From Deltaproteobacteria bacterium (lineage in GTDB: Bacteria > Myxococcota_A > Polyangia > Polyangiales > Houyiibacteriaceae), in assembly GCA_034670305.1 (NCBI GenBank), contig JAXMNT010000047.1, forward strand, positions 1 through 57,272: a stretch of DNA of 57,272 nucleotides, in the 5' to 3' direction. The position numbers and the translations under genes were made by a program. Below are positions 17,923 through 52,698 of the stretch, piece by piece (the first letter of the stretch is position 1; each line of letters opens with the position of its first letter). The notes beneath the pieces were generated by a model. The model saw only the letters and a list, made by a program, of their open reading frames with translations, did not search any database and was not told where the DNA came from.

Positions 17923-19074
17923 ATGAAGAAGCGCCGCTATCTCTTCGAGACCGAAGAACACGAGGCACTGCGTGAGCAGATGCGGGGTTGGGCACGCAAC
18001 GCGATCGCGCCGTTCGCCCACGAGTGGGAAGAGGCCGAAGAGTTTCCGCTGACACTCTACGGTCAGATGGCGGAGGCCGGGCTGCTCGGCCTCGGCTACG
18101 ACGAAACGCTGGGAGGCGGGGGGGGCGACCTCTCCCATGTGCTGGTCGCGGCCGAAGAGATGGTGCTCGCGGGCAAGTCCGTCGGCACCACGGTCGGACT
18201 CGGAAGTCACGGCATCGCGCTGCCGCCGATCGTGCGGTTCGGAACCGACGACCAGAAGAAGCGGTTCGTGCGCCCAGTGCTCGAGGGCAAGAAGGTGAGC
18301 GCGCTGGGCATCACCGAACCGGGCGGCGGCTCCGATGTGGCGTCTCTCCAAACGAAAGCCATCAAGGACGGAGACCATTACGTGGTGAACGGCGCGAAGA
18401 CGTTCATCACCTCCGGATGCCGTGCCGACTTCGTCACGACCGCGGTGCGCACCGGCGGCCCGGGCCACGGTGGCGTCAGCCTGCTCGTCATCGAGCGCGA
18501 CACGCCGGGCTTCCGCGTCAGCAAGAAGCTGCACAAGACCGGCTGGTGGGCGAGCGACACCGCGGAGCTCTCGTTCGAAGACTGCCGGGTTCCGGTGAAG
18601 AACCTGATCGGGATCGAGAACGCGGGGTTCCTCGCCATCATGACCAACTTCGTGACCGAACGGTTGATGCTTGCGGGGCAGTGCGTGGCGATCGCCGAGC
18701 TCGCCTACCGAGAGTCGGTGGCGTACGCGAAGGAACGGCGCGCGTTCGGCAAGACCCTCACCGGGTTCCAGGTCCAGCGCCACAAGCTCGCCGACATGTG
18801 CACCCGGCTCGCCGCTGCGCGGGCGCTCACCGGCGAGTGCGTGCAGCGGTTCTTGCGGGGCGACGAAGATCCAGGCCTGGCGGCGATGGCCAAGAACACG
18901 GCGACCGACATGTGCAGCTTCGTCTGCGACCAGGCGGTTCAGGTGCACGGTGGCTACGGGTACATGCGGGAGTACGTCGTCGAGCGACTCTACCGAGACG
19001 CGCGTCTGTACCCGATCGGCGGAGGCACGCGCGAGATCATGAACGAGATCATCAGCAAGACCGAGGGATACTGA
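17923..19074 (+). CDS. Acyl-CoA dehydrogenase
   Basis: ALGITEPGGGSDVA, NGAKTFITSG, ERRAFGK, QVHGGYGYMRE, YRDARLYPIGGGTREIM. Confidence 0.95.
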   Translation: MKKRRYLFETEEHEALREQMRGWARNAIAPFAHEWEEAEEFPLTLYGQMAEAGLLGLGYDETLGGGGGDLSHVLVAAEEMVLAGKSVGTTVGLGSHGIALPPIVRFGTDDQKKRFVRPVLEGKKVSALGITEPGGGSDVASLQTKAIKDGDHYVVNGAKTFITSGCRADFVTTAVRTGGPGHGGVSLLVIERDTPGFRVSKKLHKTGWWASDTAELSFEDCRVPVKNLIGIENAGFLAIMTNFVTERLMLAGQCVAIAELAYRESVAYAKERRAFGKTLTGFQVQRHKLADMCTRLAAARALTGECVQRFLRGDEDPGLAAMAKNTATDMCSFVCDQAVQVHGGYGYMREYVVERLYRDARLYPIGGGTREIMNEIISKTEGY

Positions 19075-19964
19075 TGGGCTGGGAGCCGTTTGACACCTGG
19101 CCGGGCGGGTCTTCTGAGGGAGGCGCGTTTCGAGGGCGCTCGGAGCCGATCGAAGCCGAGCGCCGAGGCTTGTCCGGACTCGAACGGCTGCAGCTCTTCT
19201 TTCAGTCGAGCCCCGACTTCCCGGACAAGCGGGTGGCTCGGCGTGCGGTGCTCACCCCCAATCACCTGTACGTGGCGCGCATGGACGGCACCGAAGCACG
19301 GGTCGCCCGGACGGCGCTGCGCGGGGTACGCCACATGGGGCGGCTCACGGTGCTCGGGGTGGTCGACGACGAGGACGTGCTCTTGCCTCGCCGGCTCGGG
19401 TGTCCGCTGCAGGACGCGCTCGTTCTGCAACTCGGTGAGCAGCCGCCGATCCACATTCCGTTCGCACGGGTGCTCGGTTTGATCATGACGCTCATCACGG
19501 GGCTCATCGCGGCGGCTGTCTTCTCTGAGTACAGCTACGCGACTTGGCGGCGGCACTGGGGCATGGGCCTGTCGACCTCGGAGTCCAGCCTTGGGTTCTA
19601 CGCCGGCGTCGGCGTGTGCCTGCTCGGGTTGCTGTTCTTTCTCTGGATCCCCACCCGTCTCGTGATCGATGAAACCGGCGTGACGCGTCGGCGGGGATTC
19701 ATCCCCTGGATGTCGTTTCACTATCCGCCAGAGAAGTTCTCTGGTGTCCGGGTCCTGCCCGTCTACGACCAACCCCGACGGGGCGGCCGAGTGCTGGCAG
19801 GTCACGGGGTCGTGCTGACCTTCCACAGCCCGATGCGTTTTGGCTCGATGTTGCCCGCAACCCGTACCCGCCTTCGCAACTTCGGGCTGAGCATGATGGG
19901 CACGTCGGAAGCCGAGATGTTTGCCCAACGGGTGGCGACGCTGCTCTCGGTACCGAGACAGTAA
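19074..19964 (+). CDS. Hypothetical membrane protein (two TM helices, PH-like C-terminal part)
   Basis: ATG overlaps the upstream stop (TGATG); TM segments VLGLIMTLITGLIAAAVF and FYAGVGVCLLGLLFFLWI. Confidence 0.65.
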   Translation: MGWEPFDTWPGGSSEGGAFRGRSEPIEAERRGLSGLERLQLFFQSSPDFPDKRVARRAVLTPNHLYVARMDGTEARVARTALRGVRHMGRLTVLGVVDDEDVLLPRRLGCPLQDALVLQLGEQPPIHIPFARVLGLIMTLITGLIAAAVFSEYSYATWRRHWGMGLSTSESSLGFYAGVGVCLLGLLFFLWIPTRLVIDETGVTRRRGFIPWMSFHYPPEKFSGVRVLPVYDQPRRGGRVLAGHGVVLTFHSPMRFGSMLPATRTRLRNFGLSMMGTSEAEMFAQRVATLLSVPRQ

Positions 19965-19971
19965 GGATTCG

Positions 19972-20154
19972 TTACTTCATCGGGTCGTCGTAGTCGGGCT
20001 CGGGCGGCTCTTCTTCGGCGGCCTCTTCGGAACCCGACGTCGTGTAGGTCTCGTCGGTTGGCGTGGTGGACGAACTCTCTTCGTCGCCACCGCCGCATGC
20101 GACGAACGTGAGGCCGAGGACGGAGATCAGGAGGAGGTGGAGCAATCGGGTCAT
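19972..20154 (-). CDS. Small acidic lipoprotein (60 aa), last gene of the MNIO operon
   Basis: MTRLLHLLLISVLGLTFVAC signal/lipobox then GGGDEESSSTT.. acidic tail; starts 13 nt after the upstream stop. Confidence 0.65.
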   Translation of the reverse strand: MTRLLHLLLISVLGLTFVACGGGDEESSSTTPTDETYTTSGSEEAAEEEPPEPDYDDPMK

Positions 20155-20167
20155 GCGTCTGCCAGGG

Positions 20168-20935
20168 TCAGGGTGAAGGAACAGAATCGGATCGGCTGCC
20201 GAGCACGATGCCGCGGCCGAGGTAGTCTTCCAAGAGCGTCGCGAGGGATTCGATGAACTTCGGACCGGTGCGGGTGTCGCGGCGCTTCGCCACCTCTTGG
20301 GTCAACGCCGCCAGCGTCTGGTCTGCGTTTGCCGGGTCGGTCCACGCCACGACCAAATCCCGGGCGAGCGGGTTCAAGAGCAGCGTGATCGCTTTGAACT
20401 CGGCCGAGCGGTACATCAGCAGGTGCAGCGGCTTCTTTTCGTACGCGTCGCGGTGCGGATCCGCATGTGGCTGTACGTCGTACCGGAGGTCGATCATCTC
20501 GAGCGCCGGGTTCATCACGATCGGTCGCTCGAACGAGAGGGGACCCACCGGCGGGACGTCCCGATCGTCGACGTGAAGGATGCGCCAGGCCATCAACTCG
20601 AAGCGGGCGAGCTCGCCGAGCCAGGGCGACTTCGTGTCGGCGTCGAACGCGCTCTGCTGCTGCGCCAGAAATCCCTCGGGTACGTGACGGAAATACCGCT
20701 CGGTGGGAGGCGCAGCCGCCAGCCACTCGGTGCAGGCGTGTTCGAACCGCTCGGTGCCGAGCGCCGCGACCAGGCGGGGCATGGCCGCGCCCACCACGCG
20801 CGTCAGCCGCGCGCGGACCATGCTGCGGTAGTCCCGCCAGCGTTCGACCGATCCGAGCAGTGCGAGGTCCTCGTCGGAGGGCACCGCGTCGAAGCAGACC
20901 CGAGCGGCGGCGCGCTCGCGTTCGCGGAGTGACAT
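20168..20935 (-). CDS. DUF2063-like MNIO partner protein (HvfC/BufC-like)
   Basis: WRDYRSMVRARL...MPRLVAALG..F..ACTEWLA..PP..Y, PWLGELARFE, NPAL..L.Y.V pattern; directly downstream of DUF692. Confidence 0.8.
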   Translation of the reverse strand: MSLRERERAAARVCFDAVPSDEDLALLGSVERWRDYRSMVRARLTRVVGAAMPRLVAALGTERFEHACTEWLAAAPPTERYFRHVPEGFLAQQQSAFDADTKSPWLGELARFELMAWRILHVDDRDVPPVGPLSFERPIVMNPALEMIDLRYDVQPHADPHRDAYEKKPLHLLMYRSAEFKAITLLLNPLARDLVVAWTDPANADQTLAALTQEVAKRRDTRTGPKFIESLATLLEDYLGRGIVLGSRSDSVPSP

Positions 20936-20937
20936 CG

Positions 20938-21813
20938 TCACGACCCTGCGCTTCCATCGGCGACCGACGGAACAGCCGCCGTCTGGTTTGTGGACGTGGC
21001 GCGCGCGTACACGACACCGAGTCGCTGCACTTCGTCGATGAGTTCCTGCAGTGGCGGCACGTTGTTGTCGCGCTCGAGCAGCACCGGCTTCGGTCCGGTG
21101 CGGCGGAGGGTGTACTCGAGCAAGTCGTACACCTCGTCGCAGACCGATTCTCCGTGGGTGTCGATGCGCAAGCCGTCCGGCCGCACCAGGTGACCGGCCA
21201 CGTGCATCTGCACGATGCGCTCGGGTGGAATCATGTCGATCCAGGACCGCGGATCGAAGCCGAAGTTCCGGCTGTTCACGAAGACGTTGTTCACGTCGAG
21301 CATGATCTTGGCGCCGGTGCGCTCCAGCACCTCGACGCAAAAGCGTGCTTCGTCGAGCCCGTCCTCGCCCTGCGGCGCGTAGTAGCTGACGTTCTCGAAC
21401 GCGATCTCGACGTCGAGCGCGTCCTGCGCCTGCCTTATCCGGTCGCTCACCGTCTGGACCGCTTCTTCATGAAACGGCAGCGGGAGGAGGTCGTGCACGA
21501 AGGCGCCGTCCGCGCCGCCGAAGCAGAGGTGGTCGCTGTGCCACGGCGCATCGACTTCCCGGAGGAACGACTTGAGTTCGGCGAGGAACTCCCGGTCGAA
21601 CGGGTCGGTGTGCCCGAAGCACATGGTGAGGCCGTGGGTCAGCAGCGGGTAGCGGTCCCGCACCTCGTTCAGATTTCGCCGGTAGAGTCCGCCGCGCTTT
21701 GCGTAGTTCTCCGGGTGCACCTCCACGAACTTCACGTCGCTCGGAAGCTGCGCGAGAAAGTCGGCGGCCATGTCGATGCGAAAGCCGAGACCGATGCCGT
21801 GGAGGGTGGTCAT
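20938..21813 (-). CDS. DUF692 family multinuclear non-heme iron oxidase (MNIO; MbnB/TglH/HvfB/BufB family)
   Basis: GIGLGFR, FVEVHPENY, THGL, WHSDHLCF, DLLPLPF, ENVSYY, LDVNNVFVN, HVAGH, IDTHG, LLERD. Confidence 0.95.
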   Translation of the reverse strand: MTTLHGIGLGFRIDMAADFLAQLPSDVKFVEVHPENYAKRGGLYRRNLNEVRDRYPLLTHGLTMCFGHTDPFDREFLAELKSFLREVDAPWHSDHLCFGGADGAFVHDLLPLPFHEEAVQTVSDRIRQAQDALDVEIAFENVSYYAPQGEDGLDEARFCVEVLERTGAKIMLDVNNVFVNSRNFGFDPRSWIDMIPPERIVQMHVAGHLVRPDGLRIDTHGESVCDEVYDLLEYTLRRTGPKPVLLERDNNVPPLQELIDEVQRLGVVYARATSTNQTAAVPSVADGSAGS

Positions 21814-21876
21814 TCAGTGCGGGGTGGGTTGGCGGACTGCACGCCGGAATTGTGGGGACCGGCGCCAGAAACGCAA

Positions 21877-21905
21877 ATGCCGCGGTGCAAAACGCACCGC
21901 GGCAT
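21877..21905 (-). terminator. Hairpin between precursor and MNIO gene
   Basis: Perfect 12-bp stem ATGCCGCGGTGC-AAAAC-GCACCGCGGCAT; followed on the minus strand by TTGCGTTTCT. Confidence 0.65.
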
Positions 21906-21930
21906 CGCGATCAACTCACAGGGCTGAGGT

Positions 21931-22212
21931 TCAGCCGCAGGAGCCCTCACCGCAGGAGGCTTCGCCACCTTCGGCTGCTGCGTCGTCGCCAGCAGCCGGG
22001 GCCGCCGCTTCGCCGCCACACGAGGCCTCGCCACCTTCCGGTGTCGCCTCACCACCACACGACGCTTCTCCGCCGCAGGAACCTTCGGTGGCTTCGCCGC
22101 CGCCCGTTCCTTCGCCGCCCGATGCCGCGCCGCCGTCGTCTCCACCGCCACAGCCCATTCCAAGAGCCGCCGTCGCCATCGCAACAAGGGTGTGCTTCAA
22201 AGCCGAGTTCAT
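21931..22212 (-). CDS. RiPP precursor peptide (93 aa): lipoprotein-type signal + five E[GA]SCG motifs
   Basis: GGAGG SD; MNSALKHTLVAMATAALGMGC then EGSCG, EASCG x3, EGSCG at the C-terminus; directly upstream of DUF692. Confidence 0.85.
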   Translation of the reverse strand: MNSALKHTLVAMATAALGMGCGGGDDGGAASGGEGTGGGEATEGSCGGEASCGGEATPEGGEASCGGEAAAPAAGDDAAAEGGEASCGEGSCG

Positions 22213-22282
22213 GTCCAACCTCCAAAAATCGGTTCCACTCACCGCATCGCTACAAAAAGCAACCATCCGTCGCGCGATGCGC

Positions 22283-22299
22283 CCGTACACTGTGTACGG
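22283..22299. promoter_or_regulatory. Perfect palindrome, candidate operator in divergent promoter region
   Basis: CCGTACAC-T-GTGTACGG between the precursor gene and the divergent peptidase. Confidence 0.45.
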
Positions 22300-22425
22300 A
22301 GAGATGATTCGGGGGACGCTACCCAAAGGCAGAAAGGACTTCAAGCCTTTCTGCTGAGATGGTCAGTGTCATCCGAACCCTGCGTATGCTGCAGTACGAG
22401 GGACGTTTCGCCCGAGATCGCATCC

Positions 22426-23907
22426 ATGTCCAATAAAATGCGCATTCCCCGTCAAAAGCAGGGTGAAACGGCGGAGTTATTTGTCCGTCTTGCCGCGGGA
22501 CGGTGGCTCGCGGGGTTCGGGGTGTTGGCGTTTTTCTGTGGCTGCGCGGCCGGTCAACATCCCGCCGAGGAGACGGGGCTGCTGGCAAACAGCCAGTTTC
22601 ACTATGAAATAACCTCCTCCCCTGGTTTCTCGCACCTCCAGGTTCGGGTGTGTTTCGAAGGGAACCCGCCTCGAAGGCTGGTCGCCATCCGCGATCGCGC
22701 GGCCGATCTGCTCGTTCAGGCCCATGGCCCAGGCGGCGAGCCGCTGACGATCGCGGGGTCGGCCATCGATCTCGGCCGCCTCACCCCGGGCAGCTGCATT
22801 CGGTACGCGGTGGATCTGGGCTTCGGTGGCTGGGGACGCGATCTGGTCCGCCACGACAACGATCTGCTCCTCTCTCACAACCTGCTGTTGTGGTGGCCTG
22901 AGGGCGCGGGTTCGGACGCGGAGATCGACGTTCGTTTCTCGTTGCCGGGCACGCACGCGAGCGCTCCGTGGATCCAAGGCGACGGTCCCCATACGCTGAC
23001 CGGCGCGGATCTGCAGCGGGCCGGCAACCTCGCGCTCACCGAGGCGCCGACGTTCTCGATGACGGAGGGCGAGACGACGGTGGAGGTGGCGGTGATGAAG
23101 GGTGCGCTCAGCGTCGACCGCGCCGGGCTGCAGCGCTGGCTCTCGAGCGCGGTGCAAGCGGTGTCGACGATCTCGGGTCGCTTTCCGCGCCCGCACCTGC
23201 ATCTGGTCGTGGTGCCGATCGGCGAGGGCAGCGCGCCGGTGGCGTTCGGGCTCGTGCGCCGAGGAGGCGGTCCCTCGGTCATGCTTCTCGTCCACGACAA
23301 CGCGACAGAAGAACGCCTCACGGCGGACTGGACCGCCATCCATGAGCTGACCCATCTCGCGATGCCCCAGATGTACAGCGAGGACCGCTGGCTCTCCGAG
23401 GGCTTTGCGACCTACTACCAGGAAGTGCTTCGGGTCCGAGCCGGGCTGCTCGAGGAGAAGGAAGCGTGGCGGCGGCTCGTCGACCGGATCGCGGGGGCCG
23501 GGGAACGGGGCGGCGGTCGGGACCTCTGGCAAACGTCTGCCGAGTTCTCCGACGTGCAGCGCATCTACTGGGGGGGCACGGCATTCATGCTCACCGCGGA
23601 CGTGGCCCTGCGCGAACACGGGAGTTCGCTCGACCGAGTGGTGACCGAGGCCCAGCCGGCGTGGCTCGAGACCGCCGACCGCACCTGGCACGGCCGGCAG
23701 TGCTTCGCGGAGCTCGATGCCGCGTTCGGCCAGCCACTCTTGTTGCCGCTGGTCGAACAGCACGGGCGACGGAGGTCGCTGCCACCGATGGACGCGCTCT
23801 TCGCGCGCCTCGGCGTGGTCCGAACCGAAGCCGGGATCGAGTTCGACGAACACGCGCCCCTCGCCCCCGTCCGTCGCGCGATCATGGCGCGTGCGGCCGC
23901 CCAGTAG
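22426..23907 (+). CDS. Gluzincin metallopeptidase (M61/M1-like), probable lipoprotein
   Basis: IHELTHL..WLSEGFATYY (HExxH..E), RIYWGG; LAFFCGC lipobox-like. Start uncertain. Confidence 0.8.
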   Translation: MSNKMRIPRQKQGETAELFVRLAAGRWLAGFGVLAFFCGCAAGQHPAEETGLLANSQFHYEITSSPGFSHLQVRVCFEGNPPRRLVAIRDRAADLLVQAHGPGGEPLTIAGSAIDLGRLTPGSCIRYAVDLGFGGWGRDLVRHDNDLLLSHNLLLWWPEGAGSDAEIDVRFSLPGTHASAPWIQGDGPHTLTGADLQRAGNLALTEAPTFSMTEGETTVEVAVMKGALSVDRAGLQRWLSSAVQAVSTISGRFPRPHLHLVVVPIGEGSAPVAFGLVRRGGGPSVMLLVHDNATEERLTADWTAIHELTHLAMPQMYSEDRWLSEGFATYYQEVLRVRAGLLEEKEAWRRLVDRIAGAGERGGGRDLWQTSAEFSDVQRIYWGGTAFMLTADVALREHGSSLDRVVTEAQPAWLETADRTWHGRQCFAELDAAFGQPLLLPLVEQHGRRRSLPPMDALFARLGVVRTEAGIEFDEHAPLAPVRRAIMARAAAQ

Positions 23908-42100: not shown

Positions 42101-44131
42101 TCATCCGTCTTGAGGACGTTCGGGCGCCTCGATGGGCGATTCGGGGGTCTCGACCGGTGCTTCAGGGACCGGTGCTTCAGGGTCCTCGATCGCATTGGGG
42201 TCTTCGATCGGTTCGGGCGTCTCTTCGATCGGGGGCCGTACACCCACTTCTGAATCGTCGACCTCGGAGTCCTCGGTGGACTCCTCGCCTGGGTAGAAGC
42301 GCACGAGGCCTCGGTGGAACGGGACGCGGGTCATGCGTTCGACGTAGAAGCGCGCGAGCCAGAGCTGGCGCGCTTCGACCTGGATCGTCGCGGCGTGCTC
42401 GAGCCGATCGTCCGGGAGCGGGTTCAGATCGAGCGCACGCCCGAGCACGAGCAGCGCGGAGTCGCGGTAGCCCTTGGCGATCATGTCCCCAGCGAGCGTG
42501 CGCAGGCCGTCGTACTCGTCGGCCACGCGCACGTAGCGGGCCGAGAGCTCGACCGCTTCGGCGGGCAGCTCGTACTCGGCTTCGTCCTGCATCGCGAGGG
42601 ATTGGAAGAGCGCTCCGTGTCCCAGCCGCAGTGCCGGCTCGGCGCCGACCGCCCGCCGGTACGCGCGCTCGGCCCCCGCCAGATCGCCCGCGTCCCGGCG
42701 CACCTCACCGAGCTTCATCCAGGCGTAGAAGGAGTCGGGGTGGGTGGTGCTGGCGTGGGACCACAGCGCGACATCGCTCTGCCAAGCGCCCTGGTACTGG
42801 AAGGTGCTGACTCCGAACAGGAGCGCCATCGCGACCGAGAGCACAGACGCCGGGAGTCCCAAGCGGCTCGGGAGCGCGATGCGTTCCAAGAGCACGCCGA
42901 ACAGGAACGCCAGCGGCAACAAAGGCAGCGAGAGGTAGCGGTCCTGCACTTCGAAGTAGAGCGGCACGACGTTGGAGACCGGCGCGAAGAAGAGCAGCAA
43001 CGCGGCCATGGCGAACCGCACCCGCGCGTTGCCGCGCCAGAGCAGCAAGACGACCAGGACCGCGCCGATCGCGTCGACGAGGGAGAAGTCTTCCATCACT
43101 CGGTGCAGCGCATACACGGGGCTGGTCCACAGCGGCATCGCGGCCGTGCCGAGGTGGTGGGTCAGGGTCGAGCCGACCAGCGCGATCCGGCCGAGGCCAG
43201 GTGGCGCGGGCCGGATCATCTCGTTGTCCTCCCAGATCCCGAGCACGACCTGCGAGAGCGCGAGACCGATCAGCAGCGAGGGCAGGTGGCTGACCACCGC
43301 GCGCTTCCAACCGTCTCTCCAGGACGCGGCGGACCAGAAGCTGCCGTTGCCCGAGAAGCGAACGGCGTCGGCCGCGAAGAGCACGAGCGGCAAGGGCAGG
43401 GCGGTGGTCTTGGCGAGCACCGCGCCGATGTAGGCCACGCGCGCCAACCACGCGTGGCGGTCCATCGGGCCACGCGATCTAGACGACGCGAGGATCGCTG
43501 CGCACACGAGCGCGAGCGCGACGATCTCTTTGCGCCCGGTCGCCCACGAGACCGCTTCGACCTGGATCGGATGCAGGCCATAGAGCAGCGCGCCGACGAA
43601 CGCCGCGCGCGCGCCGAGGCCCCACGCGATCAACACGCGCCGCACGAGCAGGAGCGTGCCGCCGAAGAGTAGGAGCGACACCGCGTGTTGCACCGGGCCG
43701 TTCGGTCCGGAGAACGGCACGTCCAGCCAGTAGCTCATCAGATGCAGCGGGTGGTACGCCTCGAAGTGCGGCTCGGACCAGATCGCCTTCAGCTCGGCGA
43801 ACCCGATCGAATGCACCGGTTCGAACTCCACGATGAACCGTTGGTCGTCCCAGCTGCGCAACAGAGCCGAGGGCACCCCGCGGGCGAACACCGCGACCGC
43901 TGCCAGAAAGAGCACCAGATCGGTGCGCCAGGAGTTCCAGAGCTTCTCGGACAACGGCGTCTGCGCCCTGTCCTCCGGCTCGACCGTTGTCGCGTTCGGT
44001 TCGGACTCGGTCGTCGCGTTCTGTTCGGACTCGGTCGACCTCGAATCGGTCGCGCTCGAATCGGTCGGCTGGGCCTGGTCGGTAGGCTTCTTCGCGGAAC
44101 GGCGCTTCTTCCGACGTTTGGGCTTGGCCAC
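42101..44131 (-). CDS. TMTC-like GT-C membrane glycosyltransferase with TPR tail
   Basis: WDDQRFI, YHPL..SYWLD, LHPIQVEAVSWATGRKE, LAKTTA, QDRYLSLP, WQSDVALW, then TPR-like helices. Confidence 0.8.
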   Translation of the reverse strand: MAKPKRRKKRRSAKKPTDQAQPTDSSATDSRSTESEQNATTESEPNATTVEPEDRAQTPLSEKLWNSWRTDLVLFLAAVAVFARGVPSALLRSWDDQRFIVEFEPVHSIGFAELKAIWSEPHFEAYHPLHLMSYWLDVPFSGPNGPVQHAVSLLLFGGTLLLVRRVLIAWGLGARAAFVGALLYGLHPIQVEAVSWATGRKEIVALALVCAAILASSRSRGPMDRHAWLARVAYIGAVLAKTTALPLPLVLFAADAVRFSGNGSFWSAASWRDGWKRAVVSHLPSLLIGLALSQVVLGIWEDNEMIRPAPPGLGRIALVGSTLTHHLGTAAMPLWTSPVYALHRVMEDFSLVDAIGAVLVVLLLWRGNARVRFAMAALLLFFAPVSNVVPLYFEVQDRYLSLPLLPLAFLFGVLLERIALPSRLGLPASVLSVAMALLFGVSTFQYQGAWQSDVALWSHASTTHPDSFYAWMKLGEVRRDAGDLAGAERAYRRAVGAEPALRLGHGALFQSLAMQDEAEYELPAEAVELSARYVRVADEYDGLRTLAGDMIAKGYRDSALLVLGRALDLNPLPDDRLEHAATIQVEARQLWLARFYVERMTRVPFHRGLVRFYPGEESTEDSEVDDSEVGVRPPIEETPEPIEDPNAIEDPEAPVPEAPVETPESPIEAPERPQDG

Positions 44132-44233
44132 GCGGGTTTCTACCCCTTGCGGCCCCGCACGTCGATCCGCGTGCGCTGTCTTCGGGAAACACCGCGTGCA
44201 CCCGGTGGTGCACGCAGGTTCACAAGACCCGGT

Positions 44234-46264
44234 TCAGAAGACCATCGCGAGGCGGGACTGCACCGTCCAGAGGAAGCTCTGGCTGAGCCCACCGAACTGA
44301 CCGAGAAGCGCGTCGCCGACCTTCATGAAGCCGAGCTCGGTGTCCCAGCGAAGCAGATCGTTCTCACCCCACTTGAACCGCAGCGCCAGGTCCACTTCGT
44401 AGCCGATGCGGCACTCGCCCTGGAACGGACCACAGCTCGTATCGGTGAAGTCGTCCCGTTCGTTCACGTAGACGGTCGCCAAGAGTTCATCTGCCCGCGC
44501 GGTCAGGAATGCTGCATGCAGCTCGATGCCGGGGACCACCGTGTAGCGGATCTGCGGGAACACATAGACCGAGTTCCACACGCCGCCGCGCGACCAGAGC
44601 GGCCGGATCTCAGGGCCGAGTCCGAGCGCGGTCATGGTCGAGAGACCGACCTGGTACATGAGCAGGCCCACGTGGTGATCGGGGTGGAGCGGCCGCACCG
44701 AGAGGTCTGGGTTGTTGAACAGGTTGCCGTCGCCGGACGAGAAACCCATCTCGAGCACCATCGCGTAGCGGTCCTCGCGGATGAACCCAGCCCGGAAGGC
44801 GCCGCCGAGCATGTTGGCGTTGGTCTGGCGGCAGATGCCGGTGTCGTCGTCGCAGCCGCCGGCGAGGGTCACCGTGTTGGTGCGCCCTCGGATGTGCACG
44901 ATCTCGCCTTCGGTGTAGAGGCTCGGCATGTTGCGGCCGAGGTTGTACTTGAGCTTCCAGTAGCCATCGAGGATGTGCACCCGCGAGGCTTGGGCATCGG
45001 TCGGCAGGTTGCGGATCGCGCCGCCGCGGCGCTGCCAGCGGTACACGTAGTACCCACCGACGGTGAGTTCGTCGCTCGCGTGGCGGCCGAAGTCTTCGTC
45101 GCGCCAGACCACCGCGTTGGCGAGCTGGTTCACGTCGTTGTCTTCGCCGACCCAAGCCTGGAACGGAATGGTGGAACGTTCGTCGGGCACGGTACCGAGC
45201 GGGCCGAGCGCGCCAATGCGAACCGTGTCCGGGTCAGGCGGGTCGGTGCCGGCGCGAATCGGGTCGTCGACGAGTTTGTCGAACGCGATCGCGTAGATGA
45301 GCGGGGTGGGCCGTGCGTCGCCGCGGGAGAGCGCGTTGAACACGGTGATCGGGCGGGTCGCGAAGAGCACCCGGTCGAAGCTCGTGCCGAACATCGGATC
45401 GCCCCATTCGCCGAGGCCGTTGCCGTCGTGGGCCAGTAGACCGAGCCCCCAGTTGGAGGGCATGCGCCCGAGCCGGATCTGGCCGACGGGGACCTTGACC
45501 TGCAGCCACGCGCGTTCGAGTCGGATCGAGTCCGCGATGTCGAAGCCTTCGTAGTCCGTGTAGCCGGGGTCGGCGGCGAACAGTGGCGTCCGCGTGATGC
45601 GTGCGTTGTCGCCGAAGACTGCGTTGTCGAGCGCGTCGATCTGCACGTAGAGCGCGGCGATCGGATCTTCGGGGTTGCCGTAGGTGACCTCGGGCGAGAG
45701 CCGCAGGCGCTGGAACGCGAAGTGTGCGTTGCCCGCGCCTTGGCGCGGTCCGACCGTCTCTTGGAGCGGCACGTTGCCGAACCAGGCGTAGCGCGCGCGG
45801 TAGTACCCGTGCAGGCCCACCGCGAGGGGAATGCCGGCGTCGGTGTCTTCGGCGGCCCGTGCGGCGCGGTCGGCGGCGGCGCGGGCCTCGGTGGCTTCGG
45901 CGCGCGCGGCGGCGACTTCTTCTTGGGCGGCTGCGAGTGCGGTTCGGATCTCCGCGTCGGTGAGCGGCGGCGGTCCGGCTTCGGCGGCAGCAGCTTCGGC
46001 GGCCGCAGCTTCAGCGGCGGCGGCTTCAGCGGCTGCGGCTTCGGCGGCGGCTTGGGCGGCGGCTTCGGCTTCGGCTTCGGCGGCTGGGTCCACCTCGGCC
46101 ACACCTTCGGTGGCTTCGGTGTCCGGTCCAGCGTCGGGCGACCCCAACTGTGCGTGCGCGGCCGATCCCGACAGGAGCAACGCGAGCAGCGTCACAACTC
46201 CCGAGCTGACCGCTGGCGCGGTTGCGGAGAACGAACGCACAGGTTGGAGTCGCCGCATGATCAA
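44234..46264 (-). CDS. Outer-membrane beta-barrel (alginate-export-like), paralog of 49044-50897
   Basis: Sec signal (AAHAQ), Ala/Glu coiled linker, GRMPSNWGLGLLAHDG, SSGDGN..LHPDHHVGLL, C-terminal Phe. Confidence 0.75.
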   Translation of the reverse strand: MIMRRLQPVRSFSATAPAVSSGVVTLLALLLSGSAAHAQLGSPDAGPDTEATEGVAEVDPAAEAEAEAAAQAAAEAAAAEAAAAEAAAAEAAAAEAGPPPLTDAEIRTALAAAQEEVAAARAEATEARAAADRAARAAEDTDAGIPLAVGLHGYYRARYAWFGNVPLQETVGPRQGAGNAHFAFQRLRLSPEVTYGNPEDPIAALYVQIDALDNAVFGDNARITRTPLFAADPGYTDYEGFDIADSIRLERAWLQVKVPVGQIRLGRMPSNWGLGLLAHDGNGLGEWGDPMFGTSFDRVLFATRPITVFNALSRGDARPTPLIYAIAFDKLVDDPIRAGTDPPDPDTVRIGALGPLGTVPDERSTIPFQAWVGEDNDVNQLANAVVWRDEDFGRHASDELTVGGYYVYRWQRRGGAIRNLPTDAQASRVHILDGYWKLKYNLGRNMPSLYTEGEIVHIRGRTNTVTLAGGCDDDTGICRQTNANMLGGAFRAGFIREDRYAMVLEMGFSSGDGNLFNNPDLSVRPLHPDHHVGLLMYQVGLSTMTALGLGPEIRPLWSRGGVWNSVYVFPQIRYTVVPGIELHAAFLTARADELLATVYVNERDDFTDTSCGPFQGECRIGYEVDLALRFKWGENDLLRWDTELGFMKVGDALLGQFGGLSQSFLWTVQSRLAMVF

Positions 46265-47286
46265 CGAAGTCCGGGGCAGCTGGGCGCGTCGGCGCGCAGC
46301 GGTCCGAGGTTCACGATCGAGATGGTGTCGGCGAAGATCGGCATGCGCTCACAGGCGATGACTTCTTCTTCTCCGCCGTCGGTGCGGCGGCCGATGAACT
46401 CCACGAATACGAACTCGCCGCCGGCATCGACCGGCAGGTTCGCGATCGCGAAGAGGCCGTCGGTGTGGCTCCAGGGCTGGTCGGCCTTCGGGAAGTCGTC
46501 GCCGTCGAAGTAGCGGTAGTGCGGGTCGGCGCTGCGGGTGCCTTCCGAGATGAGGGTTCCGTCTTCGCGGTAGATGCGCACGACGCCGCCGTAGAGCGGG
46601 TCTTCTTCGCAGTCCCACGCGGTTCCGGCGACGAGTGCGGTGCCGGGCACCTGCATGAAGCCGAGCACGGTCGGGATCAGATCGAGCGTCGCCTGCGAGA
46701 CGCTGTTGCCTTCGACAATCCGGGTGGCGTCCGGGGCCGCTTCGTTGATCTGGATCGAACCGGCGATCTGGAACGAGGGGGAAGGGTGGTCCTTCGGGAA
46801 CACGCGGTAGGCGTAGAAGCCGCCGGCGGCCGACGTGACTTCGACCCGCCCATCGGCGTCTGTGGTCAGGTCGGTGTCGGGGTCACAGGTGTCGGCCGGG
46901 TTCGGCATGTTGTCGTCGTAGAACTTCACGCAGAGCCCTTCGAGCGTGTCGTCGGTGCGGAACTCCTTGATCTCGATCTGGAAGGTGACGGCGTCGCCGC
47001 CGGCCGGGATGGTGCGCATGCCGAAGCAGCTCAACTCGGGCGCTTCCACGCCAGCGGGGTCCGGCTCGATGCCGGTCTCGCTGGCCGGGTCCGGCCCGTC
47101 GCCGTTCACCAGAGTGGGCAAGGGATCCATGCCGCCGCCCGCGTCGGTGCCGCCGGTGTCCGTGCCCGGGCCGGCGTCCACGCCACCCGCGTCGTCGTCG
47201 CCGCAGCCGAATGCACCCAGCATGGCCACCGAAAGAATCAGACCGAGCAGTCGCCCAGTCGCCGTGTTCCCCAAACGTTTCTTCAT
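46261..47286 (-). CDS. Lipoprotein with carboxypeptidase-regulatory-like beta-sandwich domains
   Basis: LGAFGC lipobox, DAG linker, TTDADGRV, SHTDGLFAIANLP; stop overlaps the next ATG (ATGA). Confidence 0.7.
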   Translation of the reverse strand: MKKRLGNTATGRLLGLILSVAMLGAFGCGDDDAGGVDAGPGTDTGGTDAGGGMDPLPTLVNGDGPDPASETGIEPDPAGVEAPELSCFGMRTIPAGGDAVTFQIEIKEFRTDDTLEGLCVKFYDDNMPNPADTCDPDTDLTTDADGRVEVTSAAGGFYAYRVFPKDHPSPSFQIAGSIQINEAAPDATRIVEGNSVSQATLDLIPTVLGFMQVPGTALVAGTAWDCEEDPLYGGVVRIYREDGTLISEGTRSADPHYRYFDGDDFPKADQPWSHTDGLFAIANLPVDAGGEFVFVEFIGRRTDGGEEEVIACERMPIFADTISIVNLGPLRADAPSCPGLR

Positions 47287-47326
47287 CGGTCTCTCCTCAT
47301 GCGCGCAGTGCACGCGTCGTTGTTGT

Positions 47327-49042
47327 TCATGGGCGCCACGCGAGCAGCGCCTCGGTCTCTTGTTGCAGCCGCGGCCAGGCATCCTTGCCCACGGAGTTGG
47401 TCTCTTCGTAGTGTTCTCCGGCCGCCTGCTCGATGTAGGGCTGGCGGCGATCGAGCACGAAGTTGAACTCGGGCAACAAGTACCCGATCTGGTCGTTGCC
47501 GAGGCTCACGAGCGCGACCCAGTCGGCGTCTTCGCGGGCGAGATCCCGTAGATAAGGAGCGGGCGGGGCCATGGCGAGCACCGGTGCGTTCTCGACCTCG
47601 GTGTCGACGATGACCGTGTCTTCCGGGGTGTAGCCACCATCGTAGCCCCCGACGAAGAGCGCAGGGTCGATCTCGCCCGGCATCCAGAGGATCTGCATGC
47701 GGCCGATGTCGATGATCGCGACTTCGGTTTCGACGTCCGGCTGGTTGCTGGGGGAGAGCACTTGCTCCGGGTCCCAGTCGTACGCTTGCCGAACGAAGAG
47801 GTCGTTCAAGATCGCGATGTGGAAACCCGCGTTCTGCACGTCGAGGAAGAGGCGGCGGTTGCGGAAACCGAGATCGGCGGTCTCGTCGGTCTCGGAGCCG
47901 CCGTCTTCGTCGAGCGCGTCGAGGACGAAGTAGGCCATCTGTTCGCCCACGGTCTGCATGGTCTCGAAGCCGTGTCGCTCGAGCGGTTCGCCGGCCCAGG
48001 TCTCCGGTGTGATCTCGCCGGGTCCGATCTGGGAACCGAGCGCGCCGGCGCAGAACGCCGCCATGCCGCCGACGCCTGGTTTGAGTTCTCCGTCGGGTCC
48101 GGCGATGCCGTTCTCGATGCCTTCGCGCAGGTAGTGCGGGAAGTCGCTCGACAGCTCGGTGTTGCGGCTGCCCCAGTACTCCGGGTGCGCCGCGAGGTTC
48201 ACCCAGGTGGCGATCGTGTCGCCCGAGTCCGCTTCGGTGAAGCGCAGGATGCGGACTTCGTCGTCGATGATCCGGGGGTGGCGTGCGTCGCTCACGTAGC
48301 GGCTCATGCCGCCCGGCTGATCGCGGAACCGGAAGGTCGCGTATTGAATGTGGGCGGGCTGCAGCGCGGCGATCGCTTCGCGCGCGGCGGCTGCACCTTC
48401 GGTGTGGATCCGATCCAGGTACGCCGGGTCGACGCCGCTGATCGTCTCGCCGAGGCCGTAGATGCCGAGCGTGTCGGTGCCCTGATGGGTGTGCGACGCG
48501 CAGGTCGCCACGTAGTCGACATCGTCGCCAGCCAGTTGTTCACGGATGGCATCGGTGTCGTCGATGAAGATGCTGAAGGTATCGGTCATCAGTAGGACGA
48601 TCGTGGTTTCGTTCTGACGCAGCGCGATGGCGCGCACCCACTGCGGGTCGTGCACGCCGCTCGCGGGGCGCGGGTTGCCGAAGCCGCCGATGAAGATCGG
48701 ATCGAAGTCACCGTTGCCGTTGCGGTCTTCGATCTCATCGCCGTCGGCCGGGTCCCAGACGCCGTTGCCGTTGACGTCGAGCGTCATGATGTCCGTCGTC
48801 TCGGTGATCACCGGCGTGATGTCGCGCTGCGCGGCACCGACGTAGAGCACGTCGTCGCCCACGTCTTCGCACCCTTCGGAACCCGGGCAGAAACTCTCCG
48901 GTGCGAAGGGCGGCGGGCCGGCGTCGGTCTCGACTTCGCTGTCGGGCGCGCCCGCGTCGACCGCGACGCCCGAATCGTCGTCGCCACACGCGTTGGACAA
49001 CGCGAGGAGCGAGACGAGGGCGCAGCGGACGGGGGCGCTCAT
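47327..49042 (-). CDS. Neutral/alkaline ceramidase-like lipoprotein hydrolase
   Basis: LSNAC lipobox; VGAAQRDITP, GVHDPQWVRAI, ASHTHQG, NLAAHPE, LSSDFP, PGE, DQIGY, HYEET; DxNGNG Ca-binding-like insert. Confidence 0.78.
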   Translation of the reverse strand: MSAPVRCALVSLLALSNACGDDDSGVAVDAGAPDSEVETDAGPPPFAPESFCPGSEGCEDVGDDVLYVGAAQRDITPVITETTDIMTLDVNGNGVWDPADGDEIEDRNGNGDFDPIFIGGFGNPRPASGVHDPQWVRAIALRQNETTIVLLMTDTFSIFIDDTDAIREQLAGDDVDYVATCASHTHQGTDTLGIYGLGETISGVDPAYLDRIHTEGAAAAREAIAALQPAHIQYATFRFRDQPGGMSRYVSDARHPRIIDDEVRILRFTEADSGDTIATWVNLAAHPEYWGSRNTELSSDFPHYLREGIENGIAGPDGELKPGVGGMAAFCAGALGSQIGPGEITPETWAGEPLERHGFETMQTVGEQMAYFVLDALDEDGGSETDETADLGFRNRRLFLDVQNAGFHIAILNDLFVRQAYDWDPEQVLSPSNQPDVETEVAIIDIGRMQILWMPGEIDPALFVGGYDGGYTPEDTVIVDTEVENAPVLAMAPPAPYLRDLAREDADWVALVSLGNDQIGYLLPEFNFVLDRRQPYIEQAAGEHYEETNSVGKDAWPRLQQETEALLAWRP

Positions 49043-49043
49043 C

Positions 49044-50897
<1,854 letters not shown>

Positions 50898-51057
50898 GTT
50901 CGGGGCGACCCTACCCTTCCGCGGGATCCCCGCCAACCACGAGTGCTTACAACTGAATCTCCCAACGCCTGGGTTTACGCACGGTGTCCGAAGGGAGAGG
51001 GGGCACTGGACGGGTCTCGGTGCAGTGCCCCAGGAAATACCGTGGTATGAGCAGGCG

Positions 51058-52698
51058 ATGCGCTTTGTCTGGCTTCCCCTCTGGATGTGTGCGCTCGTGG
51101 CGGGTGGCTTCGGCTGCGGCGACGAGGATCGGCGGGTGCCCTTCGGTCAGACGCCGCCGGACGAAGTCGAGGCCCCCGACCCGCCACCCAGCGAACAACC
51201 GTTCGAACCGGCCGAGGGGCAGTCGCTGCCGGCGGGCACGATGGGGGTTCGGGTCGAGGGTGCGGTCGTGGCCGAAGGGGCCGAGGTGCGTGCGCTCTTG
51301 CCGCTCGATCTGGACGACGACGGCGACCGAGACGTCATCGCGGTGCGCCACGACCCCAACACCGAGGTGCTCGGGGTGTGGGCGGGCACCCGCGACCGCA
51401 TGCAGTTCACCTCGCGCCTGCTCGGTTCCACCCAGGTCACCGGCTGCACCGTCGGGGAGGCGAGTCTCCGCACCCTGAGCCCCTACGCCCTGCAAGCCAC
51501 CGCCGAGGTGGTGTGCCCGGACGTCGTGGACGGACCGACCTCATGGACCGGGGTGTGGATCGTCTCGAGGGAGCGGCGCCCGCGATTGCGTGAGGCCATC
51601 GCCACCCGCGGCGGGGTCCGGGCCGACGTCGAGGTCGGCGATCTGGACGACGATCACCACGAAGATCTCCAAGTGACGATTCACGTGGGCGAGGTGGCGG
51701 TGCCGATTCGCTGGATGGACCGACCCGGCGGGCTCTCGCGCGATCGCGCGGAACCGACGGCGACCTTCGAACGGGCACCGGAAGCGCGGGCCGCGTTGGT
51801 CGCGGCGTTGTGTGGACCCTCGGCCAACGTGCGCATCGGGACCGCCCGCTGGGGCCTCGAGTGTCCGGAGGCGTTGGTGCGCGACGCGATGGTCGCGGGG
51901 CTCGACGCGCTCTTGGCCGAAGGCGAGCTCGTCCGCGCGCTCGGTGAGATCGTCGCGGGGGCGCAGGCCTCGCCCGAAGCCATTCAAGCGGCGGCCGCGC
52001 CCGGCGTGACGATGCGGCCCTGGTACACCGGCACGTTCCCCCCCGACGATCCCAACGTGCGCCACACCGCCTTGGCGTTCGACGGCGAGGATCTGCTGGT
52101 GCACGTCGGGGGCGCGACCCTGCGGGTGATGCCGACGGGCGAACAGAGCGTGGCGGAGAATGCGCGCCCGCCGATCCGCGACCCAGGCGGCACGACCTAC
52201 GTGGCGCAGGTGCGCCGGCGCTGCGAACGAGGGGAAGCGATTCTGCGGGCGATTCGCACGGGGGGTGGGAACACACCACTTCAACTGGGATCGATCCGCA
52301 TCGTCGAAGGCGCGCTGACCTGCCAAGAGACGGCGGACGACGATGGCGCGTGGCGGGTGCTCGGGTGGGCACCCCAGGGACTGCTCTCCGCCCACCTCGG
52401 CGCCCGCCGGGTCGTTCCGCTCACGGCGGAAGGCGAACCGGCCGGTGACGGGGTTGCGCTCGCCGCGGGCGAGCCGACGCCAGCCCCCTTGCTCGGCGGC
52501 CGCGTCACATCGGGCGGTGACGTCTACATCTTCGAGACGGCCGAAGGCGTGCTGCGCGTGGACCTCGACGGCGCCGAGTTGTGGCGCCCGGAGGGTTGGG
52601 CCGACATCGAAGAGGTGCCGCGCGCCGCGGCCCTGTCGGCCGACGGGAACACTGTGGCCGTGTTGCGCGGCGACATCGTCTACCGGCTGACGAAGTAG
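51058..52698 (+). CDS. Hypothetical lipoprotein with FG-GAP-like Ca-binding motifs
   Basis: AGGFGC lipobox; DLDDDGDRD and DLDDDHHED motifs. Confidence 0.7.

Follow-up and report, generated by a model that had tools for sequence, protein, structure and literature searches.

A myxobacterial MNIO operon with a lipoprotein-type precursor, probably a divergent branch of the oxazolin and fontiphorin systems

We analyzed a 57,272-nucleotide stretch of DNA from a Deltaproteobacteria bacterium of the Polyangiales (positions 1 to 57,272 of contig JAXMNT010000047.1, assembly GCA_034670305.1; hereafter, the window). Four genes that are tightly packed on its minus strand (19972..22212) encode a precursor peptide, an MNIO (DUF692) enzyme, a DUF2063 partner protein, and a small lipoprotein. 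From homology and synteny, we think that this operon probably makes a lipid-anchored, post-translationally modified, metal-binding peptide, which would be a myxobacterial relative of oxazolin and fontiphorin (the "captophorins") that enters the lipoprotein pathway as NedA does. The principle is not new: most likely, the operon belongs to a known system, of which it is a divergent myxobacterial branch.

A preliminary description of this DNA, made from the sequence alone, had proposed four co-oriented genes for a lipid-anchored metal buffer that is a peptide synthesized ribosomally and modified post-translationally (RiPP). What it observed is confirmed throughout, and all four open reading frames do lie on the minus strand, at these positions:

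21931..22212, minus strand: precursor gene (93 amino acids), with GGAGG 6 nt 5' of the ATG
20938..21813, minus strand: MNIO (DUF692) gene (291 amino acids)
20168..20935, minus strand: DUF2063 partner gene (255 amino acids), which begins 2 nt past the MNIO stop codon
19972..20154, minus strand: small acidic lipoprotein gene (60 amino acids; gene 4)

On the evidence of homology and synteny, what stands of that proposal is the RiPP operon with its MNIO and DUF2063 genes, the conserved lipobox, and serine in place of lysine; the novelty of the lipid anchoring does not stand, as explained below.

The precursor and its family

The precursor has cysteines at positions 21, 46, 52, 65, 87, and 92. Cys21 is the lipobox cysteine, and the five E[GA]SCG motifs that had been claimed are found at residues 43-47, 49-53, 62-66, 84-88, and 89-93, so that the last one ends the protein:

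22153..22212, minus strand: signal of the precursor (residues 1-20)
22150..22152, minus strand: codon of the lipobox cysteine (Cys21)
22054..22086, minus strand: motifs 1 and 2, EGSCG (residues 43-47) and EASCG (49-53), with one extra Gly between them
22015..22029, minus strand: motif 3, EASCG (residues 62-66), isolated
21934..21963, minus strand: motifs 4 and 5, EASCGEGSCG (residues 84-93), the C-terminal double repeat and best-conserved part of the family

From Cys21 on, the mature part has 73 residues (26 Gly, 15 Ala, 11 Glu, 6 Ser, 6 Cys, 4 Asp, 3 Thr, and 2 Pro). It is acidic (net charge -15) and rich in glycine and alanine, and this count agrees with the earlier statement that it has no Lys, Arg, or His and no Phe, Trp, or Tyr. 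The signal does end in LGMG-C-GGGDD, as had been described, and further lipoprotein-like N-termini in the window share its "xG-C-G-(G/D)" style.

When 5.8 billion clustered proteins were searched (E <= 0.01), 74 matched the precursor; the names attached to them are Polyangiales, Sandaracinus, and metagenome-assembled genomes (MAGs) of Myxococcales. Because these 74 matches share the signal, the lipobox cysteine, and the motifs, the precursor is not a chance open reading frame. We dropped two truncated or frameshifted fragments (P0009 and P0070) and analyzed the family with 73 members, the window's precursor included. In all 73, the first cysteine lies at position 21-25 and is preceded by Gly or Ala, and none of the 73 has an aromatic residue in the mature part; Lys, Arg, and His are wholly absent in 18. 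The 306 cysteine motifs of the family are mostly EGSCG (124) or EASCG (122), along with EASCS (19) and EGSCS (13). Lys precedes the cysteine in just 4 of the 306, and three relatives combine EGKCG or EAKCG with E[AG]SCG. The mean share of the top residue is 0.89 for the first 17 residues, 0.97 for the last 10, and 0.44 for the middle, where all of these shares are inflated by the one genus that dominates the sample. Contigs of close relatives from public sequencing runs carry in-frame indels in the repeat region (window positions 21966..22043 and 21973, 22039, and 22128), namely a 76-nt stretch swapped for 10 letters and several 3-nt indels. The number and spacing of the motifs thus vary between near-identical strains.

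A look-up in the ESM Atlas returned Myxococcota clusters only. The precursor profile matches 39 of 401 sampled genomes of the phylum (counting the window's genome), and of the 22 other genomes that belong to the same taxonomic family as the window's, 21 contain the precursor family. The window's own genome (7.9 Mb, 96% complete) contains one MNIO and one precursor, which are adjacent; the precursor is its only match to the family profile (66.4 bits). In a survey of gene neighborhoods, the MNIO gene lies directly downstream of the precursor gene in 23 of 29 fetched loci, and the partner gene is present as well in 22 of those 23. The precursor stands alone in five of the remaining six loci, and one has no tblastn match. 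Four loci (L065, L068, L069, and L118) have two tandem precursor genes upstream of one MNIO gene.

On the evidence of profile comparisons, the precursor family is a detectable homologue of the classical EGKCG repeat precursors (the HvfA or oxazolin type). The family profile matched 105 of 1.84 billion sequences at E <= 1e-3, with classical EGKCG precursors among them, and hhalign joined the family to 18 classical sequences over 82 columns (97.6% probability, E = 4.7e-12), in both cases for sequences that are compositionally biased. Among the 105 matches, those with a lipobox have Ser-only (47), Lys-only (3), or mixed (2) motifs, and those without have Lys (17), Ser (7), or mixed (10) motifs; 19 have too few motifs to sort. 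Thus, either type of signal occurs with either type of motif. The NCBI model for the HvfA family (NF050137, KCGExKCG_twice; cut-off 19.5 bits) is passed by 29 of 70 homologues, and it accepts EGSCG forms (P0131, 41.6 bits), lipobox EGKCG forms (P0128, P0149, and P0166), and lipobox EGSCG forms (P0106, P0107, and P0115). Furthermore, EGSCG precursors with signals of the signal peptidase I (SPI) type adjoin MNIOs in Wenzhouxiangella sp. XN79A, a Halomonas MAG, and a Pseudomonadota MAG. So the window's system does have Ser at the classical Lys position, as the preliminary description proposed, but it is not unique in this, since gammaproteobacterial EGSCG precursors adjoin HvfB-type enzymes.

Several lines of evidence point to lipid anchoring. 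The pattern for signal peptidase II (SPII) substrates (Lys in the n-region, an h-region, and a lipobox [..][AGS]-C), applied as a regular expression, was matched by the window's precursor and by 73 of 73 family members. The other cysteines of the family stand in a different context, almost always E-x-S-C, and the 17 Lys-only (classical-type) profile matches have no lipobox-like cysteine. The genome encodes LspA (one match), Lgt (three loci), and Lnt (two matches), all above their cut-offs. If the core cysteines are modified, then the lipobox cysteine must be spared, and this has precedent because NedA of Neisseria dentiae, produced in E. coli, was both triacylated and modified, with -12 Da over three EGKCG motifs (PMC13056109).

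The residue after the lipobox cysteine may matter for both sorting and sparing. Lys is found at +2 in 8 of 12 inner-membrane lipoproteins of M. xanthus (PMC3222651). By this rule, the 41 of 73 family members with C-K at the lipobox would stay in the inner membrane, and the window's form, with C-G, would pass to the outer membrane. Also, the fontiphorin enzyme FonB with its partner FonC (FonBC) is blocked by a charged residue after the cysteine (PMC13097082), so the lipobox cysteine of the C-K members would be protected from the enzyme. By the same analogy, the window's Cys21-Gly is without the protection that Lys gives in those members.

The enzyme and its partner

The window's enzyme matches PF05114 (MbnB_TglH_ChrH) at 311.7 bits (cut-off 25; profile positions 1-258 of 263) and, by this similarity, is a member of the MNIO superfamily; the partner matches DUF2063 at 34.0 bits (cut-off 27.2). 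Both profile searches agree with the earlier assignments. The closest solved structure to the enzyme is 3BWW (E = 1.4e-58). H60, H95, E140, N141, D173, N176, H204, H208, D218, H220, E247, and D249 are invariant in 60 relatives. Eight of these (H60, H95, E140, D173, H204, D218, H220, and E247) are identical in 3BWW and in the chains of MbnB; the same holds for 8HCI, except at D173 and D218. We take these eight positions to be the iron ligands. D249 is assigned as the catalytic base from the D249A mutant of FonB (PMC13097082).

The best-scoring NCBIfam models for the enzyme are HvfB and BufB, with ApyH, ChrH, and MbnB far lower. Four enzymes of its clade, the window's included, score 273-298 bits for HvfB and 256-285 bits for BufB, which is below both equivalog cut-offs. 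For HvfB, the relatives L060, L071, and L089 score 273-285 bits, and the gammaproteobacterial enzymes L040, L042, and L043, which adjoin EGSCG or EGKCG precursors, score 419-438 bits; the two scanned MNIOs that lie beside gammaproteobacterial EGSCG precursors are at 438 and 419 bits. In a quick tree, a long branch separates four gammaproteobacterial HvfB-type enzymes from 53 rows, nearly all of them Myxococcota, and the window's enzyme groups with rows labelled Sandaracinaceae or Polyangiaceae (17 rows in the group, SH-aLRT 92); this tree has long branches that meet, and its basal forks are weak (78).

In FonB, specificity is shaped by Arg15/Arg16, by Asp249 (the catalytic base), and by Phe250 (PMC13097082). 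The residue after the catalytic Asp is Asn in 17 and Phe in none of the 23 MNIOs that adjoin family precursors. Among 80 further related loci, of which 79 were readable at this position, it is Phe in none, Asn in 18, and Gln in 37, and the second Arg is present in 11 of 77 of these further MNIOs, mostly in Obscuribacterales-type loci. We also considered whether the change from Lys to Ser in the substrate co-varies with the change from Phe to Asn in the enzyme. This was ruled out: gammaproteobacterial EGSCG precursors adjoin Arg-Arg/Asp-Phe enzymes, and in locus L020 an Asn-type enzyme accompanies an EAKCG/EGKCG precursor.

The Obscuribacterales are non-photosynthetic relatives of the cyanobacteria. 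In their MAGs (L109, L113, L115, L116, L119, L123-L125, and L130), related MNIOs lie beside SPI-type, very Lys-rich precursors with K-E-G-S-C-K-G repeats, which have Lys after the cysteine; the enzymes have Arg-Arg but Asp-Gln.

The partner scores 25.4 bits for NGO1945_C, the model of the C-terminal RRE domain (cut-off 27), and a profile of 44 partner orthologues matches 3DEE at E = 3.7e-14. By these profile matches, it is clearly a homologue of the PME-type 1 (PME1)/HvfC/BufC partners, with scores that do not reach equivalog status.

Known systems, proposed mechanism, and alternatives

HvfBC modifies six cysteines of HvfA, with -4 Da at each, and the product binds Cu(I) (PMC11252979). Bufferins are exported by Sec, and their cysteines are converted to 5-thiooxazoles by BufB and BufC (PMC11626156). 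Oxazolin has since been reassigned to 5-thiooxazole and the class was named captophorins, which are recognized by the conversion of Cys to 5-thiooxazole, -4 Da, ~302 nm, and an alkylatable thiol (PMC13097082). Hybrids of RiPPs and lipoproteins ("DAG-RiPPs") were described as widespread among MNIO subfamilies, and subsets of the bufferins and oxazolins were said to carry SPII signals (PMC13056109, PNAS 2026). The preliminary description had presented the lipid-anchored version as novel, but DAG-RiPPs had already been published, including NedA, which is triacylated and modified.

The most similar of the described systems is NedABC, in which an SPII precursor with E-G-x-C-G repeats is encoded with an MNIO and a substrate-binding partner. 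NedA is modified in the cytoplasm, after which it is exported and lipidated, with its lipobox cysteine spared, and we propose the same order for the window's system. As judged from the published description of NedABC, NedA has three motifs of the EGKCG type, whereas the window's precursor, with a mature part that lacks basic residues, has five of the E[GA]SCG type. Lipidation and -12 Da were measured for NedA, whereas lipidation and modification of the window's peptide are predicted from its genes. The window's enzyme and partner fall below the curated HvfB and HvfC cut-offs.

HvfABC(X) of Haemophilus influenzae (oxazolin) and FonABC (fontiphorin) likewise have an MNIO, a DUF2063/PME1 partner, and a Sec-exported repeat peptide (PMC11252979, PMC13097082). 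The precursor families are linked by the profile match, and the catalytic Asp and the metal-site residues are kept. In contrast to the window's lipobox precursor, the HvfA/FonA-type precursors that we collected have SPI signals, a conserved NPF...SGY after the signal, and are rich in Lys. Their enzymes, with Arg-Arg and Asp-Phe, exceed 360 bits for HvfB, as opposed to Arg-Ile, Asp-Asn, and 298 bits in the window. Also, these clusters often include DoxX, and the window has none adjacent. The gammaproteobacterial EGSCG precursors (L040-L042 and L044, from the three genomes named above and a Woeseiaceae MAG) share the substitution of Ser for Lys and are strongly acidic, and the Woeseiaceae precursor has no Lys, Arg, or His after the signal, as in the window's mature part. 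Unlike the window's precursor, they have SPI-type signals, NPFQ, and aromatic residues, and they pass the HvfA-family cut-off. The MNIOs beside L040-L042 are canonical HvfB (Arg-Arg, Asp-Phe), and in L044 the pattern flagged no MNIO.

BufA1/BufA2 with BufBC(D) of Caulobacter vibrioides (PMC11626156) also combine a Sec-signal precursor with an MNIO and a DUF2063 partner, and the window's enzyme scores almost as high for BufB (276.6 bits) as for HvfB. However, bufferins are not made of E-x-x-C-G repeats but are small folded proteins (DUF2282 or with 6/12 cysteines); SigF/NrsF regulates them, and DoxX often accompanies them. Their cysteines become 5-thiooxazoles and they buffer copper in the envelope, which is only proposed for the window's peptide.

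Within the Myxococcota, the loci of Labilithrix luteola DSM 27648 (L089) and of Nannocystaceae MAGs have MNIOs of the same clade in the quick tree, a lipobox-type cysteine, and no Phe after the catalytic Asp. Their precursors differ in their motifs (G-E-G-G-C-G-A-H-K, ...GASCGAGTCSAKK, and GEASCSGEKA) and have long Ala/Pro/Lys-rich linkers with many basic residues. At least 36 of 80 related MNIO loci (Labilithrix, Nannocystaceae, and others) have lipobox-type precursors with other cysteine motifs; this is a lower bound, as the automatic precursor caller made no call in 27 loci and chose wrong starts in several (such as L089). L. luteola is cultured and fully sequenced (L089 is at NZ_CP012333.1 10242614-10245910, with a lipobox precursor that ends in ...GASCGAGTCSAKK) and could serve as an experimental host; the loci that we analyzed include no cultured strain of the exact E[AG]SCG type.

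How much of this is new? The distribution survey in PMC13097082 covers Pseudomonadota reference genomes, and "Myxococc" and "lipoprotein" are absent from its searchable text. In that of PMC12452194, "lipoprotein" occurs once and "Myxococc" is absent, and the text of PMC12766979, on conserved gene clusters of Myxococcota, has none of the MNIO terms. Among the full-text matches listed for EASCG, EGSCG, or the C-terminal motif, none was a paper on MNIOs. Among the matches listed for captophorin, DAG-RiPP, or RiPP-lipoprotein together with Myxococcota or Polyangi, just PMC13056109 and its preprint were relevant. The myxobacterial clade was not found in the searchable main texts. Hence the possibility, raised in the preliminary description, that the precursor belongs to an already described lipoprotein precursor family holds for the kind of system and not, in the searchable text, for the myxobacterial clade. 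The earlier interpretation was right in kind, but literature from 2026, together with the natural variation of Lys/Ser and SPI/SPII inside the HvfA superfamily, has superseded its main claim to novelty. As far as we searched, what is new is a coherent myxobacterial clade whose divergent enzyme differs at specificity residues and belongs to neither the HvfB nor the BufB equivalog. To the same extent, the highly conserved lipoprotein signal, the Ser-Cys motifs, the basic-residue-free peptides in the closest relatives, and a conserved intercistronic hairpin are also new.

We propose the following mechanism. A conserved sigma-70-like promoter would drive the precursor, and a strong hairpin would let only part of the transcripts reach the enzyme genes. 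In the cytoplasm, the tri-iron MNIO, kept on the peptide by the DUF2063 partner, would oxidize the five core cysteines by four electrons each. The expected product is 5-thiooxazole (earlier assigned as oxazolone/thioamide), with -4 Da per site and -20 Da in total, and the heterocycle would bear a Ser side chain at the place of oxazolin's Lys. After export by Sec, Lgt would add diacylglycerol to Cys21, LspA would cut before it, and Lnt would acylate the new N-terminus, to give a 73-residue triacylated polyanionic peptide. With Gly and not Lys at +2, this would probably go to the outer membrane, and the forms of most relatives (+2 Lys) to the inner membrane. Last, the peptide would buffer Cu(I) in the envelope; copper binding, which we propose by analogy to oxazolin, bufferins, and fontiphorin, is the least certain step. 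Modification of E[GA]SCG is plausible because FonBC accepts Ala, Arg, or Thr, and not Phe or Glu, in place of Lys (PMC13097082) and because gammaproteobacterial EGSCG precursors adjoin HvfB-type enzymes. After the cysteine, FonBC accepts only Gly or Ala (PMC13097082).

Some of our observations weigh against this proposal. The window's precursor has no Pfam match and no NCBIfam match (the latter in hmmscan even at E <= 10), and with NF050137 it reaches 10.9 bits, below the cut-off; this match falls on motifs 4 and 5 and is the best place for the model in the window's own genome. Among the NCBIfam models, the enzyme is under the cut-offs of both HvfB (NF003818, 298.3 vs. 360 bits) and BufB (NF050167, 276.6 vs. 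310 bits), and the best model for the partner, HvfC, covers profile positions 25-236 of 237 with 69.2 bits against a cut-off of 142. At the places of YRRD and ERDF in 3BWW, the enzyme carries Arg12-Ile13 and Asp249-Asn250, and with these replacements for the Arg-Arg and Asp-Phe of Lys-Cys (FonB/HvfB-type) enzymes, its specificity or even its product could differ. Given that FonBC modified a substrate with two adjacent repeats and not a one-repeat substrate (PMC13097082), the isolated motif 3 and the spacing of motifs 1 and 2, one residue wider than in the canonical pair, are also unfavorable. The lipobox has Gly at -3 and Met at -2, unlike the textbook L-[AST]-[GA]-C. Cys21, with Gly after it and a small residue before it, is itself like a substrate dyad, and if it were modified then lipidation would be blocked. 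The signal peptide of BufA1 is dispensable for modification (PMC11626156), which bears on the role of the conserved signal. Finally, nothing nearby points to copper. We found no copper gene near the operon and no DoxX, sigma, or anti-sigma gene in the operon or its flanks, which agrees with the preliminary description as to DoxX and extracytoplasmic function (ECF) sigma/anti-sigma genes, and the promoter-like element looks housekeeping-like. DoxX and ECF sigma/anti-sigma genes are common in bufferin and oxazolin clusters and not obligatory (PMC12452194); the two DoxX genes of the genome are both on other contigs.

The unusual lipobox raises the alternative that the same RiPP chemistry takes place with no lipidation, so that a cut by SPI (for example, after ALG or GMG) releases a soluble periplasmic or secreted peptide, as with oxazolin and the bufferins; indeed, HvfA and BufA are SPI substrates (PMC11252979, PMC11626156). 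We consider this quite improbable. In every family member, a cysteine that follows Gly or Ala closes the h-region, and the Lys-only classical matches have none like it; its "xG-C-G-D" style recurs in the window's other lipoprotein-like N-termini, while a subset of the oxazolins has SPII signals (PMC13056109). Another possibility is that the peptide is modified and anchored and yet is not a copper buffer, and instead binds Ca, Zn, or Fe, takes part in envelope redox or thiol chemistry, or is displayed on the surface or on vesicles. Apart from the neighboring genes and the promoter, this would fit a conserved core location near rpoBC and the presence in 21 of 22 other genomes of the taxonomic family, both of which suggest a housekeeping role, and it would fit a mature part that lacks basic residues and has a net charge of -15, in contrast to the classical, Lys-rich forms; also, the metal specificity of 5-thiooxazole metallophores is said to need fuller study (PMC13097082). 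Nevertheless, every characterized MNIO-PME1 product binds copper (PMC11252979, PMC13097082, PMC11626156) and Lys-free EGSCG forms occur beside canonical HvfB enzymes, and we judge this possibility to be unlikely, if worth keeping in mind.

That the MNIO performs a different reaction on these cysteines, or none, and that the precursor is a differently modified or unmodified Cys-rich acidic lipoprotein, seems very improbable. It is true that neither the HvfB nor the BufB equivalog takes in the enzyme, which has Ile and Asn at two specificity positions, and that many different reactions are known for MNIOs (PMC13056109). But the residues of the metal site and the catalytic base do not vary among the relatives, HvfB and BufB outscore the other models by a wide margin (ApyH, ChrH, and MbnB being far lower), E-x-S-C-[GSA] is the conserved feature of the co-located peptide, and small residues at the Lys position are tolerated by FonBC (PMC13097082).

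A broader reading, which we think is unlikely, goes further: the myxobacterial systems would be a third MNIO-PME1 branch beside HvfB and BufB, with lipid anchoring as the rule. The near-invariant signal (MNSALKHT..AMATAAL) would double as a leader for recognition by the partner, and the altered enzyme residues (Arg-x, Asp-Asn/Gln) and Ser heterocycles on a polyanion free of basic residues would give a metal preference or a location other than oxazolin's. Within that reading, the window's lineage could have its peptide in the outer membrane or in vesicles, and the +2-Lys lineages theirs in the inner membrane.

If our proposal of a modified, lipid-anchored peptide holds, then lipid-anchored thiooxazole metallophores extend from a few examples in Pseudomonadota and Bacteroidota to a marine and soil lineage of Myxococcota. 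Because copper peptides that are modified by MNIOs, exported by Sec, and lipidated after SPII processing have already been published, the gain is in breadth and detail, with no new concept. The clade does offer natural experiments: a Ser-for-Lys heterocycle substituent, an enzyme clade without Arg-Arg and Asp-Phe, and a lipobox cysteine that is followed by Gly and has to be spared.

Expression and genomic setting

Four features outside the coding regions may bear on the expression of the operon:

22316..22344, minus strand: promoter-like element, TTGAAG (22344..22339), a 17-nt spacer, and TAGCGT (22321..22316), ~100 nt 5' of the ATG
22213..22315, minus strand: putative 5' leader, with a palindrome, a stem, and GGAGG (22223..22219)
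22299..22283, minus strand: CCGTACAC-A-GTGTACGG, a perfect palindrome within the putative 5' leader
21877..21905, minus strand: GC-rich hairpin (12-bp stem, 5-nt loop), then TTGCGTTTCT, between the precursor and MNIO genes

The pattern TT[GT]NNN-N16-18-TA[GC]CGT precedes the ATG of the first precursor gene by 62-144 nt in 11 of the 15 upstream regions, a count that is partly circular as the pattern was derived from the same sequences. The other 4 of the 15 regions belong to second, tandem precursor copies. The pattern occurs twice in the whole window, with both strands scanned, and a scan for consensus sigma-70 promoters found none. In the leader, a stem (GCATCGC...GCGATGC) is common to the nearest relatives only (L059, L061, L075, and L065), and 10 leader sequences gave no consensus fold and no Rfam match. 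One metatranscriptome contig, 392 nt long (word depth 40.6) and from a close relative, matches 21946-21966 and 22043-22365. It thus covers the precursor gene with the region upstream of it, and nothing else in the stretch compared. The contig extends upstream of the proposed -35 element, and contigs cannot show transcript ends; we take it as no more than a weak hint that the precursor is transcribed.

The 141-nt region around the intercistronic hairpin has a fold z-score of -3.78. Minimum-free-energy folds show a hairpin with at least 10 uninterrupted pairs in 19 of 24 precursor-MNIO spacers, the window's included (this supersedes a strict count of perfect stems, 11 of 24), and in 15 of the 24 the hairpin is followed by at least 4 T within 10 nt. 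Judging from these folds, the hairpin is probably a partial terminator or attenuator. Such an element is expected if the precursor's mRNA is made in excess over that of the enzyme.

Gene 4 encodes an acidic protein of 60 residues whose sole cysteine is the lipobox cysteine. We considered gene 4 as a core part of the system and ruled this out, as there is a single convincing orthologue among 121 genomes of the order (G235, E = 1.4e-10), where it overlaps the stop codon of the partner gene by 4 nt. In two other loci (L034 and L036), fewer than 60 nt separate the matches to the partner and to acyl-CoA dehydrogenase, which is too little for gene 4. Thus, gene 4 is lineage-specific.

On one side, the operon is bordered by a divergent gene (22426..23907, plus strand) for an M61-like peptidase (PF05299, 28.8 bits; HELTH motif), and on the other by a 296-residue open reading frame (19074..19964, plus strand) with no Pfam match, which is convergent with gene 4 (the stop codons are 7 nt apart) and separates the operon from a gene for an acyl-CoA dehydrogenase. 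The flanks also encode a PP2C phosphatase as well as a Ser/Thr kinase. The M61-like gene is syntenic in 3 of 5 extended loci (L032, L033, and L034), as is the acyl-CoA dehydrogenase gene in 3 of 5, and rplK, rplL, rpoB, and rpoC lie 8-19 kb from the operon. These neighbors place the operon in the conserved core chromosome and not on an island. The N-terminus of the M61-like peptidase ends in ...AFFCGCAAG and may itself be a lipobox; that this peptidase processes the Gly-rich N-terminus of the lipopeptide would be pure speculation.

Elsewhere in the window (42104..52695), six large open reading frames of 373-676 residues, on both strands, have no Pfam match at E <= 1e-5. Two of them (46261..47286 and 51058..52698) start with lipoprotein-like signals.

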